DNA from: Escherichia coli 042
GTDB lineage: Bacteria > Pseudomonadota > Gammaproteobacteria > Enterobacterales > Enterobacteriaceae
NCBI RefSeq assembly: GCF_000027125.1
Contig: NC_017626.1
Reading direction: 5' to 3' (one strand)
DNA length: 64,000 nt
Part shown: positions 12,972 through 50,742 of the stretch, in pieces
Numbering within the stretch: the stretch's first letter is position 1
How the letters are laid out: each line of letters begins with the position of its first letter
The notes under the pieces: generated by a model
The model's input: only the letters and a program-made list of their open reading frames with translations
Databases searched by the model: none
What the model was told of the DNA's origin: nothing
Made by a program: the position numbers and the translations under genes

Positions 12972-13937
12972 TTACAGAATGTGACCTAAGGTCTGGCGTA
13001 AATGTGCACCGGAACCGAGAAGACCCGGATTGTCATGGACGATGAGATACACCGGAATATCATGGACATATTCTTTAAAGCGCCCTTTATCTTCAAATGC
13101 GGCACGGAAACCGGAGGCTTTGAAGAACTCAAGGAAGCGCGGCACGATACCACCCGCAATAAACACGCCGCCAAATGTCCCGAGATTGAGCGCCAGATTG
13201 CCGCCAAAACGGCCCATAATGACGCAAAACAGCGACAACGCGCGGCGGCAATCGGTGCAGCTGTCAGCCAGCGCACGTTCGGTAATATCTTTTGGCTTGA
13301 GATTTTCTGGCAGGCGGTTGTCGGCTTTCACAATCGCGCGATACAAATTCACCAGCCCAGGACCAGAAAGCACGCGCTCTGCCGAAACATGACCAATTTC
13401 TGCACGCAGTATTTCGAGGATAATGCCCTCTTCTTCACTATTCGGCGCAAAATCAACGTGACCGCCTTCGCCTGGCAAGCTTACCCAACGCTTATCTACA
13501 TGGACCAGATGCGCAACCCCAAGCCCCGTTCCGGCACCGTAAACCGCAATAGGCTTACCTTCGACCGGTTCTGCGCCACCAAACTGAATCAGATGCTCTT
13601 TTTTCAGCATCGGGATCGCCATCGATACAGCGGTAAAATCGTTAATAATTTCCAGATGGCTAAAACCGAGATTCTTTTTCATTTCGGCAATTGAGAACGC
13701 CCAGGTATGGTTGGTCATTGCCACCCAGTCACCGGTAATTGGGCAAGCGATGGCAATACAGCCGTCTTTCACCTCGACCTTATGTTCTTCAAGATAAACG
13801 CGAATGACCGCTTCGAGGCTGGGGTAATCAAGCCCTGAATAGGTCTTAGCCTGCGAGATTTCACCACTGGCAATATCACACAGAGCAAGACGTGCGTTGG
13901 TGCCGCCCACATCACCGACTAATGCATACTTTGTCAT
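12972..13937 (-). CDS. glk: glucokinase
   Basis: 321-aa ORF recognised as Glk. Confidence 0.92.
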
Positions 13938-14140
13938 TCTTCAACTGCTCCGCTAAAGTCAAAATAATTCTTTCTCACACTGTAAATACCTGGGGGCATA
14001 ACAACAACGCCGGAAAGGCAGGCTCCCTGTAAATATCGATCTGGGTCACACAATTACTTTATCGTTTCAGCACCAATTGCAGCGATGCCTTTTTGCAAGC
14101 TGGGCAAACTAAGTATCTGACCCCGCATAAGGAATAGAAT

Positions 14141-15397
14141 ATGCTCCATCCGCGAGCCAGAACCATGTTGTTATTATCGCTCCCCGCCGTGGCAATTGGG
14201 ATTGCGTCCAGTCTTATTCTGATTGTGGTGATGAAAATCGCCTCGGTATTACAGAATTTGCTCTGGCAACGACTGCCGGGAACTCTGGGGATAGCCCAGG
14301 ATTCACCTTTCTGGATCATCGCCATATTAACGCTAACAGGTATTGCGGTGGGGTTGGTTATCCGTTTCAGCCAGGGGCATGCCGGACCAGACCCCGCCTG
14401 TGAACCGCTGATCGGCGCACCAGTTCCGCCCTCTGCGCTACCAGGACTTATCGTAGCATTAATTCTCGGTCTTGCTGGCGGCGTCAGCCTGGGGCCGGAA
14501 CATCCGATCATGACCGTCAATATCGCCCTTGCGGTTGCCATTGGCGCTCGTCTGTTACCGCGCGTCAACCGAATGGAGTGGACTATTTTAGCCTCTGCCG
14601 GCACCATCGGCGCGCTGTTTGGCACACCTGTTGCGGCGGCGTTGATATTTTCGCAAACCTTAAATGGCAGTAGTGAAGTTCCGCTATGGGATCGTCTTTT
14701 TGCGCCATTAATGGCGGCAGCAGCTGGTGCACTTACTACCGGATTATTTTTCCATCCCCATTTTTCACTGCCCATTGCGCATTACGGACAGATGGAAATG
14801 ACCGATATTCTCAGCGGTGCAATTGTCGCGGCGATTGCCATCGCAGCAGGGATGGTCGCCGTATGGTGCTTACCACGGTTGCACGCGATGATGCATCAAA
14901 TGAAAAATCCGGTGCTCGTGCTGGGTATTGGCGGATTTATTCTCGGTATTCTGGGGGTTATGGGTGGACCAGTTTCGCTGTTTAAAGGGCTGGATGAGAT
15001 GCAGCAGATGGTGGCAAATCAGGCTTTCAGCACCAGCGATTACTTTTTGCTGGCGGTGATTAAACTTGCCGCCCTGGTCGTTGCTGCCGCCAGTGGCTTT
15101 CGCGGTGGACGAATCTTCCCGGCAGTGTTTGTCGGCGTGGCATTAGGGTTGATGCTGCATGAGCACGTTCCCCCCGTTCCAGCGGCAATAACCGTTTCCT
15201 GCGCTATTCTCGGCATCGTGCTGGTGGTAACACGCGATGGCTGGTTAAGTCTTTTTATGGCGGCAGTCGTTGTACCCAATACCACATTGCTACCGCTGCT
15301 CTGTATCGTCATGCTTCCGGCATGGCTGTTATTAGCAGGTAAGCCGATGATGATGGTCAATCGTCCGAAGCAACAGCCACCCCACGATAACGTTTAG
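14141..15397 (+). CDS. yfeO: putative ion-channel/transport membrane protein
   Basis: 418-aa polytopic ORF recognised as YfeO. Confidence 0.85.
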
Positions 15398-42721: not shown

Positions 42722-43513
42722 TCAGATGCCGACGCTAACCGTCTCCGGCAGTGTGCTGCCGCCATCAATCACATTCTGTGTACCGGTTAAATAACTTGAT
42801 TCATCCGATGCGAGGAAGGCTGCCAGTTCGCCGACTTCCAGCGGATCGGCGAGGCGACGCATCGGGATTGCTTTTGCCATTTCAGTCAGCACCGATTCTG
42901 GATCTTCCGGGTTCGACTGGCGGGCAATGCTTTCCGCCATTGGCGTGCGTACGTATCCCGGGCAGATGGCGTTAACGCGAATACCAGACCGCGCGTACTC
43001 CACCGCCAGCGATTTAGTCAGGCCAACAATCGCCGCTTTCGTTAAGGCATACGCCGTTTCACCCGGATCGGCCACCATATCGCCAGTGACTGAAGACATC
43101 ATCACAATGCGACCATCTTTGCGGGCAATCATCTCCGGCAGCACCGCCTTCGTGACGTTCCATACACCTTTAATATTGATATCAATATGGAAATCGCGAT
43201 CTTCATCGCTCATATCGAGGAAACTGCCCAGACGACAAACGCCTGCGTTATTCACCAGGATATCAATGCGCCCTTCTTTTTCCTTCGCGCGCTTGATAGC
43301 TGCGGCGACCGACGCCGGGTCACGCACATCGGCGACAACCGCCGTACAGCGATGACCACGACCACACAGTTCGTCCGCCAGCTTTTCGATCTCAGGGGAG
43401 ATATCCAGCAAGATTAGGTTTGCGCCATGACGCGCAAAAGTTCTGGCAATTCCTTCGCCAATTCCCTGCAATGCGCCCGTAATCAGTGCTGTCTTGCCCG
43501 TGAGTTTACCCAT
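42722..43513 (-). CDS. ucpA: short-chain dehydrogenase/reductase
   Basis: ORF 42722..43579 trimmed to ATG 43513 (MGKLTGKTALITGALQGIG...) with AGGAGA SD; 263 aa. Confidence 0.88.
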   Translation of the reverse strand: MGKLTGKTALITGALQGIGEGIARTFARHGANLILLDISPEIEKLADELCGRGHRCTAVVADVRDPASVAAAIKRAKEKEGRIDILVNNAGVCRLGSFLDMSDEDRDFHIDINIKGVWNVTKAVLPEMIARKDGRIVMMSSVTGDMVADPGETAYALTKAAIVGLTKSLAVEYARSGIRVNAICPGYVRTPMAESIARQSNPEDPESVLTEMAKAIPMRRLADPLEVGELAAFLASDESSYLTGTQNVIDGGSTLPETVSVGI

Positions 43514-43641
43514 TTTAATGCTCTCCTTGTTAATACAGAGCGTTACACTCCATTCCCTCTGAAAATACAGGATAAACAAAATATTGCTGCGGATCAGCTC
43601 ACTAATTCAGGAAAATCTCAATTCAGTCGCTGCTTTATGCA

Positions 43642-44499
43642 TCATTTCAGGCGTTGCGTTAGCTCACTGCTGCGCTCAATCATTTTCAATGACTCCACAT
43701 CATTGAGTTGCACAAGGCCAACAAACAGTAAATCGGTAACAGAATTTTGCGCCGTGCGGGTAGACATCGACGAGCTACGCCATTCGGTTTCACCGGAAAC
43801 GGTATCGAGCGTGAAATGCGCCAGCCGCCGCAGCGGAGAATCGGTTAACGAGGTAATGGCAATCACCGTTGCCCCCTGCTTTCGTGCTGCCTCGGCGCAC
43901 AAGACAATCTCTTTTTTACTGCCGCTGTAAGAGATAGCGATTTGTACATCGCCTTTTTTTAGCGCCTGAGAAACGGTGGCTTGTACGTGCGTGTCGGCTT
44001 CACAGGCCACGCGATAGCCAATTTTCATCAGTTTGAACGACAGATCGCGCCCCACCAGCGCCGACCCGCCCAGGCCCGTTATCTGGATAAACGGTGCTTT
44101 ACTGATGGCCTCAATGATTTTTTGCAGCCGCGCGTAGTCGAACAACGCGCAGGTTTGCTCCAGCGCCAGCTCTTTTTCGCGATTCAGTTTGCGGGCAATC
44201 ACTTCCAGCGAATCATCACTGGTAATCGAACTGTGCAGGTGCAGCGCCGTGGCATTCGTTTTCTCCCGGCTGGCACTGTATTCGCCAATTAACGCCATAC
44301 GCAATTCAGTAAATCCTTGCGCGCCGAGCTTCTGGGCAAACTTCACAATACTCGACTGACTGATGCCGAGCTGTTTCGCCATCTTGCGCGAAGAGACAGA
44401 TTTCAGCTCACTCACGTTGGCCCGCAGAAAGTCAGCAATTTTTTGCTCGTTCCCGGTAAATTCACTTTCCGCATTGCGTATTTTCGTCAGGTACAACAT
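43642..44499 (-). CDS. murR: RpiR/SIS-family repressor of MurNAc catabolism
   Basis: ORF 43642..44832 trimmed to ATG 44499 ([14 protein letters not shown]...) giving 285 aa; the longer reading would overlap murQ. Confidence 0.85.
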
Positions 44500-44662
44500 C
44501 TTCCACTCTCCTGGGCTGGCAGCAAAAATTCCGCTTAAGTTCTTATGACGCTCTTCACACTCTGCGAGTGTAGACTCAATGATTCCTTTAAGTCTGTCAA
44601 TTCGGGATATATGATTCCATACATCTGCAATTATTTGATCGTAAATAGTAAGGTCACCACCG

Positions 44663-45559
44663 ATGCAACTTGAAAAGATGATTACCGAAGGCTCGAACGC
44701 CGCCTCGGCTGAAATTGACCGCGTATCAACGCTGGAAATGTGCCGGATTATCAACGATGAAGATAAAACCGTGCCGCTTGCCGTTGAGCGCGTACTGCCG
44801 GATATCGCCGCGGCGATCGATGTTATCCACACCCAGGTAAGCGGCGGCGGGCGTCTGATTTATCTCGGTGCGGGAACATCCGGTCGTCTGGGGATTCTGG
44901 ATGCCAGCGAATGTCCGCCCACCTACGGCGTGAAACCAGGCCTGGTAGTTGGATTAATTGCTGGCGGCGAATATGCCATTCAGCACGCGGTGGAAGGCGC
45001 GGAAGATAGCCGGGAAGGTGGTGTTAACGATCTGAAAAATCTTAATTTAACGGCACAGGATGTGGTGGTTGGGATTGCGGCCAGCGGACGCACGCCGTAT
45101 GTGATTGCCGGACTGGAATACGCGCGCCAGCTCGGCTGCCGCACAGTGGGAATTTCCTGTAATCCGGGGAGCGCCGTTTCAACCACCGCAGAGTTTGCCA
45201 TTACACCGATTGTAGGTGCCGAAGTAGTCACCGGTTCTTCGCGAATGAAAGCAGGCACGGCGCAGAAACTGGTGCTCAATATGCTTTCCACCGGGCTGAT
45301 GATTAAATCCGGCAAAGTGTTCGGCAACCTGATGGTCGATGTGGTCGCCACCAACGAAAAACTGCATGTGCGCCAGGTCAATATCGTCAAAAACGCTACC
45401 GGATGTAGCGCAGAGCAAGCGGAAGCGGCATTGGTTGCCTGCGAGCGCAACTGTAAAACGGCCATTGTGATGGTGCTGAAAAATCTCGATGCCGCAGAAG
45501 CTAAAAAACGCCTGGATCAACACGGCGGCTTTATTCGTCAGGTTTTAGACAAGGAATAA
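44663..45559 (+). CDS. murQ: N-acetylmuramic acid 6-phosphate etherase
   Basis: 298-aa ORF with SIS domain; recognised as MurQ. Confidence 0.92.
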
Positions 45560-45562
45560 CCC

Positions 45563-46987
<1,425 letters not shown>

Positions 46988-46991
46988 TAAT

Positions 46992-47081
46992 ATGAAACGG
47001 ACAATGCTCTGTCTTTCTCTGCTGGCTGTCAGCTGTAGCGTCAGCGCCGCAAAATACCCTGTTCTGACAGAAAGTAGTTGA
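46992..47081 (+). pseudogene. 29-codon remnant ORF, possibly the 5-prime end of yfeW (PBP4B)
   Basis: ATG 4 nt after murP stop encodes MKRTMLCLSLLAVSCSVSAAKYPVLTESS then stop (signal-peptide-like); K-12 has the ~430-aa yfeW here (from memory). Confidence 0.4.
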
Positions 47082-47109
47082 TCAAGTGTATGCGGCGTTA
47101 AAGCAGTAA

Positions 47110-47146
47110 TAAAAAGGCCAGTCAGTTGTGATACTGGCTGGCCTTT
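47110..47146 (-). terminator. rho-independent terminator of yfeX
   Basis: minus strand: hairpin aaaggccagccag/ctgactggccttt with one G-U pair, followed by a U-tract. Confidence 0.6.
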
Positions 47147-47166
47147 AATCATCGAATCAGAAACGA

Positions 47167-48150
<984 letters not shown>

Positions 48151-48161
48151 TCAGACGCAAA

Positions 48162-48737
48162 TTAACGCCGCCAGATAATTTTACTGACTTTCCAGTTTTT
48201 CAGGGTATCGTCCGAAGGCATTAACCCTTCAGGACCACTCCATTCCCCGCTGAACTGGTAGCTAATATGTTGACTGCCTTCGGCTTTACATTCGACGGCA
48301 CGATTATCATCACCATCAGCTTTTTGGCAATTGCCAAATGCTTTGCTGTAAAGGTCGCTAAACGGTGTACCGATTTTAACACCGGTGTCAGCAGGAATAT
48401 CGCTATCCAGCACATCAATGCGGCTGATCGTACCCTGATCGCCGTTAATCACCATCGCCACGTTGTCGCCTTTCATCACTTCAAAAAAGCGCACCACGTT
48501 GCCGTTCGCGGTTTTCATTCCGCTGCGCAGGCGATAATCGCCATCAAGCGCATCGGCAATGGGTTGTTCTTGCAGTGGTGTGGACGCCGTTAATTCACCA
48601 ACGCCCTGCTCGCTCACTTTGGTGGACGACCCAAACCAGTTCCACGGGTTAGCGGCAGACCAGTTAACTGACGACATCGTGGAACAGCCGGTCAGCATCA
48701 GCGGCATAGCGCATAACATTAAACGCAGCGATTTCAT
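48162..48737 (-). CDS. yfeY: lipoprotein
   Basis: 191-aa ORF with lipobox LTGC; recognised as YfeY. Confidence 0.85.
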   Translation of the reverse strand: MKSLRLMLCAMPLMLTGCSTMSSVNWSAANPWNWFGSSTKVSEQGVGELTASTPLQEQPIADALDGDYRLRSGMKTANGNVVRFFEVMKGDNVAMVINGDQGTISRIDVLDSDIPADTGVKIGTPFSDLYSKAFGNCQKADGDDNRAVECKAEGSQHISYQFSGEWSGPEGLMPSDDTLKNWKVSKIIWRR

Positions 48738-48797
48738 GTCACTTCCTTTGGTTATTCAATAACGTTGCTTGGAGTGCAAATTCACCAAAAAGTGCCG

Positions 48798-49247
48798 TTA
48801 TTCTTTTTCTTCATTAAAACAAGCGCGTAAACGTCGATTGGTCAGCAGCCAGATTAACGCCACAATATCCGCCACTACCAGCGCCAGCCCGATACCGCTA
48901 ACGGATTCACCGTTCAGCCACAGCCACGGTTGCCAGCAAAGTAAAACCACTTGCGCCAACAGCAACAGAAAATAGAGCACATGCCAGATACGGGGAAATG
49001 AAGCCCGCCGACCACTCAGCAAAAACGCCAGCACCGCCGGAATGCCGGGAATCAACCCCAGCCAGAAATTATCGTGATCGGGATAAAACAGATTTAGCAG
49101 CGCAGTACCCTGCTCGCGCGACGCACCGGCAATGACAAACAGCACCCAGGTTCGCGCCTGAAGCAATAGCACAAGCCAGAAGAGCAAGGGTAAACGCAGG
49201 CGACCGTGCGCATCATAATGGACAGGATGAAACTCAGTACTCTTCAT
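48798..49247 (-). CDS. yfeZ: inner-membrane protein
   Basis: ORF 48798..49253 (TTG) trimmed to ATG 49247 ([15 protein letters not shown]...), 149 aa. Confidence 0.8.
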
Positions 49248-49659
49248 CTTCAATCAAACGCTTACCCAGACTTAGCACGTCGGCGTGTTCATATCCCAGG
49301 CGTTCATACATTCCGAGCACCATGTCGTTATCTTCCGGCACGTTGATCTGAATTTTCGGGCAGCCGCGAGCAATCAGCTTTTTCTCCAGCCGATTAAGCA
49401 ACGCATTAGCAATCCCACGCCCACGAAACTCTGGATGCACGCCAAGATAATAAGCAGACCCGCGATGCCCGTCATAACCGCCCATCACCGTTCCGACCAC
49501 TTCACCGTTTACCTCAGCGACCAGAAACAAACTGACGTCATGGTTCATCTTACGCTCGATGTCCATTTCCGGATCGTTCCACGGACGCAGCAAGTCGCAA
49601 CGCTCCCAAAGGGTGATGACCTCTTCGAAATCTTCCTGGCGAAATACGCGTATCTCCAT
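49234..49659 (-). CDS. ypeA: GNAT-family N-acetyltransferase
   Basis: ORF 49234..49770 trimmed to ATG 49659 ([14 protein letters not shown]...) giving 141 aa. Confidence 0.85.
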
Positions 49660-49872
49660 GGTATTCGTTACCTTTTTGCGGGTTAAAAGGCTGATTATGG
49701 CGTGAACGGTCGAATTAGCCAATATCTGACGAAAATCGGTTGAAAAAGTGGCATAATGAGGAGTTGTCAACTATTGAAATGAAAAGTAAAACAATTCTCA
49801 ACAGCAAACGGTCGTAACGGATTACGCGATACGATATAACATCTGGAACTTTATTATTACAACTCAGGCCGT

Positions 49873-50742
49873 ATGAGCACTTTTAAACCACTAAAAACAC
49901 TCACTTCGCGCCGCCAGGTGCTGAAAGCCGGTTTGGCTGCCCTGACGTTGTCAGGAATGTCGCAAGCCATCGCCAAAGACGAACCTTTAAAAACCAGCAA
50001 CGGACACAGCAAGCCGAAAGCTAAAAAATCTGGCGGCAAACGTGTCGTTGTTCTCGATCCAGGCCACGGCGGGATTGATACCGGAGCGATCGGGCGCAAC
50101 GGTTCGAAAGAAAAACATGTGGTGCTGGCGATTGCTAAAAACGTCCGTTCCATTTTGCGTAATCATGGGATTGATGCGCGTTTAACGCGTTCTGGCGATA
50201 CGTTTATCCCACTTTACGATCGCGTTGAAATCGCCCATAAACATGGCGCAGATCTGTTTATGTCAATTCATGCCGATGGCTTTACCAACCCGAAAGCTGC
50301 CGGTGCTTCGGTATTTGCCCTCTCTAACCGTGGGGCAAGTAGCGCAATGGCGAAATACCTGTCTGAACGCGAAAACCGCGCCGATGAAGTTGCCGGTAAA
50401 AAGGCGACTGACAAGGATCACCTATTGCAGCAAGTGCTGTTTGATCTGGTGCAAACCGATACTATTAAAAACAGCCTGACGCTCGGCTCGCATATTCTGA
50501 AAAAGATTAAGCCGGTGCATAAACTGCACAGCCGCAACACCGAACAAGCCGCGTTTGTGGTGTTGAAATCGCCGTCGGTTCCTTCGGTGCTGGTGGAAAC
50601 CTCGTTTATCACCAACCCGGAAGAAGAGCGGCTGTTAGGCACGGCAGCATTTCGCCAGAAAATCGCCACAGCGATTGCCGAAGGCGTGATCAGTTATTTT
50701 CACTGGTTTGACAACCAGAAAGCACACTCGAGAAAGCGGTAA
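49873..50742 (+). CDS. amiA: N-acetylmuramoyl-L-alanine amidase A (Tat-exported)
   Basis: 289-aa ORF with twin-arginine signal (TSRRQVLKAGLAALTLSG). Confidence 0.92.
   Translation: MSTFKPLKTLTSRRQVLKAGLAALTLSGMSQAIAKDEPLKTSNGHSKPKAKKSGGKRVVVLDPGHGGIDTGAIGRNGSKEKHVVLAIAKNVRSILRNHGIDARLTRSGDTFIPLYDRVEIAHKHGADLFMSIHADGFTNPKAAGASVFALSNRGASSAMAKYLSERENRADEVAGKKATDKDHLLQQVLFDLVQTDTIKNSLTLGSHILKKIKPVHKLHSRNTEQAAFVVLKSPSVPSVLVETSFITNPEEERLLGTAAFRQKIATAIAEGVISYFHWFDNQKAHSRKR

Follow-up and report, generated by a model that had tools for sequence, protein, structure and literature searches.

In Escherichia coli 042 only 179 bp (46988..47166) lie between murP and the convergent yfeX in the window, by which we mean the whole 64,000-nt stretch analysed here. 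The order in K-12 MG1655 is murR (minus strand), murQ, murP, yfeW (434 aa, 'penicillin binding protein 4B') and the convergent yfeX. This raises the question of whether yfeW was lost from the 042 locus or was never there, and what the short open reading frame (ORF) found in the gap represents. The original prediction had held that K-12 carries a ~430-aa yfeW here, co-oriented with murQP, that about 1.2 kb of this gene was lost, and that its 5' end survives as a 29-codon ORF followed by the yfeX terminator. It proposed aligning the gap to the K-12 murP-yfeX interval, comparing the 29-aa peptide with the YfeW N-terminus and surveying yfeW presence. As contrary outcomes it named a peptide unlike that N-terminus, or an ancestral murP-yfeX adjacency with yfeW gained in the K-12 lineage.

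The dimensions given for the gap proved to be correct, and K-12 yfeW follows directly after murP with the predicted size and orientation. The ATG of the ORF is at 46992, 4 nt after the TGA of murP as predicted. The features of the interval and its two neighbours are as follows.

45563..46987, plus strand: murP, intact, 474 aa (ORF list, Pfam PTS_EIIB and PTS_EIIC, K-12 length)
46992..47075, plus strand: yfeW 5' remnant with the start, the signal-peptide codons and the first mature codons, comprising yfeW nt 1-82 plus the ambiguous GT (gap-free alignment)
46992..47081, plus strand: 29-codon ORF, created by the deletion; an incomplete pseudogene in RefSeq
47074..47075, no strand: deletion junction, a GT microhomology assignable to either side, with 1,184 bp of yfeW absent (BLAST overlap and multiple alignment)
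47076..47109, plus strand: yfeW 3' remnant, the last ~34-35 nt, out of frame relative to the 5' part, with the original TAA at 47107..47109 and a marker A at 47085
47113..47146, no strand: stem-loop with a 14-bp stem, located after the yfeW stop in intact alleles too (folding)
47167..48066, minus strand: yfeX, Dyp-type porphyrinogen peroxidase, intact and convergent, 299 codons (Dyp peroxidase domain matches)

The ORF encodes MKRTMLCLSLLAVSCSVSAAKYPVLTESS and ends with a TGA stop at 47079..47081. Its product was predicted to resemble a signal peptide with a few mature residues, and it is identical to residues 1-29 of K-12 YfeW at 28 of 29 positions, the sole difference being Y7C. The N-terminal signal peptide and the position as third gene of murQ-murP-yfeW are thus both present in the remnant, with the ATG spaced as in K-12.

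The window region 46500..47700 was compared with the K-12 region by BLAST, which returned two collinear blocks overlapping by one base. The first (46500..47074; 95.3% identity, no gaps) corresponds to K-12 murP and yfeW nt 1-83, and the second (47074..47144; E = 8e-23) to the last 39 nt of yfeW and the terminator hairpin. The window therefore shares with K-12 yfeW/pbp4B (b2430; NCBIfam NF002968, PF00144) the locus, the orientation and the start context after murP, and the first 27 codons (Y7C aside), the last ~12 codons and the terminator are homologous, whereas the interior of the gene is gone. Judged by these alignments, the likeness of the ORF to YfeW is homology and not chance.

The missing segment amounts to 1,184 bp, close to the ~1.2 kb predicted, and is wholly intragenic, joining yfeW nt ~83 to nt ~1267/1268 (K-12 numbering). 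In most intact alleles the left side reads GAAAGT|TCG and the right side GGGT|AGTT, so that the GT at the junction constitutes a microhomology of 2 nt (1 nt relative to K-12). The codons across the junction are GAA AGT AGT TGA, with the frame disrupted and a premature stop. As 1,184 cannot be divided by 3, the frame of the 5' part is not continued in the 3' part; codon 28 spans the junction and draws on both sides, and codon 29 and the stop come from the retained yfeW 3' end, read in another frame. It is in this respect that the prediction had to be amended. The 5' end of yfeW is indeed left over (~83 nt), but not alone, as ~35 nt of the 3' end including the TAA are kept as well. Since an empty site would have neither end, the presence of both identifies a deletion, and the retained 3' end is the most direct proof of a deletion versus an empty site. 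A single illegitimate recombination at 1-2 nt of microhomology (G or GT) would have excised the 1,184 bp. There remain the start, the signal peptide and ~9 more codons, then two that belong to the junction or are read out of frame, a stop, ~34 nt of 3' end and the hairpin; murQ and murP are untouched.

What was removed corresponds to YfeW residues ~29-422. The Beta-lactamase domain recognised by Pfam in the K-12 protein (PF00144, E = 4e-69) spans residues 44-412, and the whole catalytic domain by which a functional PBP4B is recognised is therefore gone. That domain contains the SxxK active-site motif, and PBP4B belongs to the class C-like low-molecular-weight PBPs with a serine beta-lactamase fold. 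A Pfam search with the 29-aa remnant returned no family match. With no catalytic beta-lactamase-fold domain left, the strain makes no PBP4B, and murP is the last functional gene of its murQP operon. MurNAc uptake (MurP) and MurNAc-6-P etherase (MurQ) are kept, and PBP4B alone is missing. In the literature pbp4B is the third gene of the operon and encodes a low-affinity PBP (PMC5061867), co-regulated with murQP by MurR (PMC9177960); that it is not essential for growth is stated in the title of Vega and Ayala 2006, cited in PMC5061867. Because PBP4B is dispensable and binds penicillin with low affinity, no consequence for resistance or growth is expected.

The ancestry of the locus was examined by a YfeW scan of species-representative genomes, followed by tblastn with the K-12 neighbours. 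The order murR-murQ-murP-yfeW-yfeX-yfeY was intact and collinear in Escherichia whittamii, Escherichia sp. MOD1-EC7003 and Escherichia sp. E1V33, and murQ-murP-yfeW-yfeX-yfeY was intact in Salmonella enterica subsp. arizonae and one Citrobacter. In C. sedlakii the order murR-murP-yfeW-yfeX-yfeY was found, with no hit for murQ. None of these outgroup genomes contained the junction of the window. As the outgroups carry intact yfeW at the same place, the gene is ancestral and the window represents a loss, which bears out the prediction against a gain in the K-12 lineage.

A separate case was met in E. albertii NBRC 107761, where yfeW at the same locus is, like in the window, inactivated by internal deletion. 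Unlike in the window, two deletions leave yfeW nt 1-172 and 482-685 (locus L065, 1152..1730), a REP spacer is kept and no junction is shared. This separate loss indicates that yfeW is expendable in more than one lineage, and it shows what an independent loss looks like. By tblastn, murP of the same genome is split at residues 398/413, possibly through an error of the draft assembly. One further sequence, DXKH01000140.1, is labelled as a Citrobacter sp. metagenome-assembled genome (MAG); its MurP, YfeW, YfeX and YfeY are 98-99.7% identical to those of E. coli K-12, compared with ~80-86% for real Citrobacter, and the contig most likely derives from E. coli and was misbinned.

The distribution of the allele was determined in 5,426 complete E. 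coli genomes. A 1.2-kb query spanning the junction gave a one-piece match in 1,274 of these, and a 71-nt junction query matched 1,268, including Nissle 1917 (100% identical) and UTI89. A 1.1-kb internal yfeW probe found a match in 4,153 genomes but not in the other 1,273, with at most one copy per genome. The junction and probe sets are complementary, and hence one allele explains essentially all absence of yfeW in the species, with no hidden second copy elsewhere. Found in ~23% of the complete genomes, the deletion is not private to this strain. Ten carriers were extracted, namely the window, KK19-02, AST215, Nissle 1917, UTI89, XJ6.1, A20, EcPF18, E4 and PEC41. In every one of them the junction falls on the same base and the ORF has 29 codons. 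Additionally, all ten carry A at 47085 where six of six intact Escherichia alleles have G, a position 10 nt away from the junction. A microhomology of 1-2 nt gives nothing that would direct recurrence, from which a single event was concluded. From the identical junction and this one linked SNP we infer that the deletion had a single origin, recurrence at a 2-nt microhomology being very unlikely.

The backgrounds that carry the deletion are diverse. Nissle 1917 and UTI89 are strains which we take to belong to B2. Named strains were sampled here, and their membership of B2 or D was taken from such well-known strains and from one table (PMC13248637). KK19-02 (deleted) and DG351-2 (intact pbp4b; ST69, phylogroup D according to the same table) show 0 differences over the 2,329 nt of murQ-murP and diverge only from the remnant onward. 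The genomes nearest to the window include ECA64, CB209, CB6837 and O17_K12a, which are O77g/O17:H18 members of phylogroup D with ST663, ST449 and ST925 (PMC13248637). The identical flanks of KK19-02 and DG351-2 and this phylogroup D kinship show that the allele is polymorphic among close relatives.

Over 22 kb the window is 99.4% identical to the complete genomes closest to it (phylogroup D O77g). About 125 SNPs are packed into ~44000-50500 (6.5 kb, murQ to amiA) and only ~5 lie elsewhere; this clustering marks the segment as a recombination patch. From the junction to 48800 its right flank shows no difference from AST215, and for its left flank (murQ-murP) no match was found among the genomes examined. 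Such mosaicism is normal in E. coli. To judge from these sequence comparisons, the present distribution of the allele reflects homologous exchange as well as descent. The deletion would be old enough to have become fixed in B2-type genomes and would later have been moved among backgrounds by homologous recombination.

Two observations concern the neighbouring genes. When murQ and murP of the window (44663..46987) were compared with those of five other sequences, differences in murQ reached 67 of 900 (7.4%) between AST215 and Nissle 1917, and murQ/murP differed by ~3-5% between most pairs. Core genes typically diverge much less; the diversity is a hint that sequence was often imported at this locus or that old haplotypes persist there. 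In KK19-02, the complete genome nearest to the window, amiA is annotated as frameshifted (13874..14742), which could be a long-read assembly error; amiA of the window (49873..50742) is intact with 289 codons.

The 29-codon ORF has been treated as debris in public annotation. In all nine carrier genomes inspected, PGAP describes it as 'hypothetical protein, incomplete; partial in the middle of a contig; missing C-terminus'. The annotated pseudogenes CIW80_RS26390 of Nissle 1917 and IFE20_RS24620 of UTI89 represent the same allele as in the window, with the same junction, 29 codons and neighbours. The window copy differs from them by few SNPs, its Y7C being shared with AST215 and XJ6.1, and the window keeps murR. 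Over the ten alleles the amino acid varies at 7 of 29 positions (Y7C, V13I, Y22F, P23T, L25Q, T26A/I, S28G), and, among the alleles compared, V13I, L25Q, T26A, T26I and S28G were confined to deleted ones. In total, the ten alleles hold ten non-synonymous and four synonymous codon variants, 28 codons being a small sample. With this many variable positions, the purifying selection on amino acids across carriers that is expected of a micropeptide was not found. The codons of the ORF look unconstrained, in a sample too small to prove neutrality. The ORF may be translated by coupling to murP, which would yield a signal peptide with a tail of ~10 residues; no sign of a function was seen.

Upstream of murQ the window is complete, with an ORF for ucpA at 42722..43579 (annotated end 43513), murR retained at 43642..44499 on the minus strand, and murQ starting at 44663. 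B2-type genomes lack murR as well, with ~872 bp absent between ucpA and murQ (Nissle 1917, locus L067, 846..1126; also L069, L071, L072). After this second deletion, 59 nt from the murR 3' end and only 90 nt ahead of murQ remain; the corresponding region of the window (43513..44663) is intact. The murR-deletion junction is present in 1,047 of the 5,426 complete genomes. It occurs in four of the ten yfeW-deleted genomes (Nissle, UTI89, A20, EcPF18) and is absent from the other six, including the window. As far as the sequences allow, this suggests that murR loss leaves murQP without its repressor, and derepressed, in B2. A literature search found nothing on murR loss in B2.

Homologues of YfeW with 55-61% identity, unusually close across phyla, were found in Bacillaceae (loci L021, L025, L031, L032). 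One of these (L031, 3971..5323) scored 704 bits on the NCBIfam PBP4B equivalog model (cut-off 385). They sit in clusters of the order murQ-murR-murP-x-[homologue]-nagZ-ybbC. The B. subtilis cluster is murQ-murR-murP-amiE-nagZ-ybbC, with amiE (ybbE) encoding a MurNAc-L-alanine amidase (PMC5061867). The Bacillaceae homologues of YfeW thus occupy the amiE slot, a likeness of position. By this analogy 'PBP4B' may be an AmiE orthologue acquired horizontally, and it may act as an amidase scavenging muropeptides. This concerns the protein that the strain has lost rather than the remnant. A sequence search of the PDB with YfeW gave distant beta-lactamase-fold esterases and peptidases only, with no structure of YfeW or AmiE.

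Taken as a whole, we read the interval as a yfeW pseudogene remnant that arose from one illegitimate-recombination deletion and was spread by recombination, with an ORF that shows no sign of function, and give this reading a probability of about 0.93. An artefact of assembly or sequencing in the window can be dismissed outright, as more than 1,260 complete genomes from independent sequencing show the identical junction. It is hardly conceivable that murP-yfeX adjacency is the ancestral state and that yfeW was inserted in the K-12 lineage. The absence of the gene from 23% of genomes would fit an insertion, as would the close relatives in Bacillaceae with their hint of an old horizontal origin in enterobacteria, but the ~83 nt and ~35 nt kept from the two ends and joined out of frame refute it, and intact yfeW occupies the same site in three other Escherichia representatives, in S. 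enterica subsp. arizonae and in Citrobacter. That the deletion arose several times at a hotspot, in B2, D and other backgrounds, is highly improbable. In its favour, murQ/murP differ by up to 4-7% between deleted alleles, and certain deleted and intact genomes share identical left flanks. However, the junction is base-identical in ten of ten alleles despite a microhomology of only 1-2 nt, the derived A at 47085 is found in ten of ten deleted and none of six intact alleles, and the loss in E. albertii involved entirely different deletions.

Two alternatives bear on the meaning of the remnant rather than on its origin. The ORF might be maintained as a small gene, for instance one that is coupled in translation to murP and encodes a secreted or lipid-anchored micropeptide, in keeping with a start codon held 2-4 nt past the murP stop, an intact signal peptide, an AVSC motif that can alternatively be read as a putative lipobox, and a length of 29 codons in every one of the ten alleles. 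We regard this as highly improbable, since constant length is also expected of an 87-nt neutral sequence, the variants (ten non-synonymous, four synonymous) cluster in the would-be mature part (T26A, T26I, L25Q, S28G), there is no match in Pfam or Rfam and PGAP calls a pseudogene. Rather doubtful, too, is the proposal that yfeW loss was an adaptive trimming of the MurNAc-salvage locus, a favoured allele spread by recombination and joined in B2 by the loss of murR, with YfeW being an amidase of the AmiE type. It is compatible with the sharing of one allele across unlike backgrounds, with the paired deletion of murR (1,047 genomes) and with the place of the YfeW homologues at the amiE position in Bacillaceae, and none of these demonstrates selection or activity. 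If it were true, B2 would keep a bare, presumably derepressed murQP, and YfeW would be no true penicillin-binding carboxypeptidase.

Within the preferred reading, that of a non-functional remnant of a single deletion, the yfeW deletion is an ordinary, old gene-loss polymorphism, already recorded in public annotation as a pseudogene. No paper describing the deletion or its distribution was found in the literature searched. The ORF is best annotated as a yfeW pseudogene fragment instead of a hypothetical protein. K-12 is unrepresentative for the murQ-murP-yfeW operon, and the yfeW locus can serve as a presence/absence marker of a single event whose distribution has been shaped by recombination. 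For cell-wall recycling, the loss of murR in B2-type genomes and the putative AmiE orthology of YfeW are of more interest than the loss of yfeW itself.

The remainder of the gap is taken up by the hairpin. Its predicted folding energy is -26.5 kcal/mol on the plus strand (z = -5.3; 0 of 200 shuffles equal) and -23.1 kcal/mol on the minus strand (z = -4.2). Past the stem the minus strand continues with TTTTTATT and the plus strand only with TTTAATCAT. A consensus promoter/terminator scan did not call this hairpin and returned no consensus terminator, a miss attributed to the short T-run on the plus strand and to a C-A mismatch in the stem on the minus strand. The yfeX terminator named in the original prediction is present as a hairpin, but it is not that of yfeX alone, since in intact alleles it follows the yfeW stop and is shared by both genes. 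From its position and folding it would be the original, and likely bidirectional, terminator between convergent yfeW and yfeX. The murQP transcript would now end at a hairpin that formerly came after yfeW. The scan gave one promoter-like site, on the minus strand, which was weak and at the level expected from shuffles.

Further scans of this region were negative, with no RNA family found by Rfam in 46800..47400 (E <= 1) and no Pfam family for the 110-aa minus-strand ORF at 46820..47152. This antisense ORF was treated as a by-product of the facing coding sequence.

The yfeW-yfeX spacer itself comes in two forms. In K-12, E. albertii and E. whittamii it contains a REP/BIME element of ~182 bp (K-12, locus L001, 6443..6594), and in K-12 this element is flanked by two copies of the hairpin, as if duplicated on insertion. 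A short spacer with a single hairpin is found in the window (47110..47166), DG351-2, Salmonella and Citrobacter. The deletion would have arisen once, on a haplotype with this short spacer lacking the REP insert.
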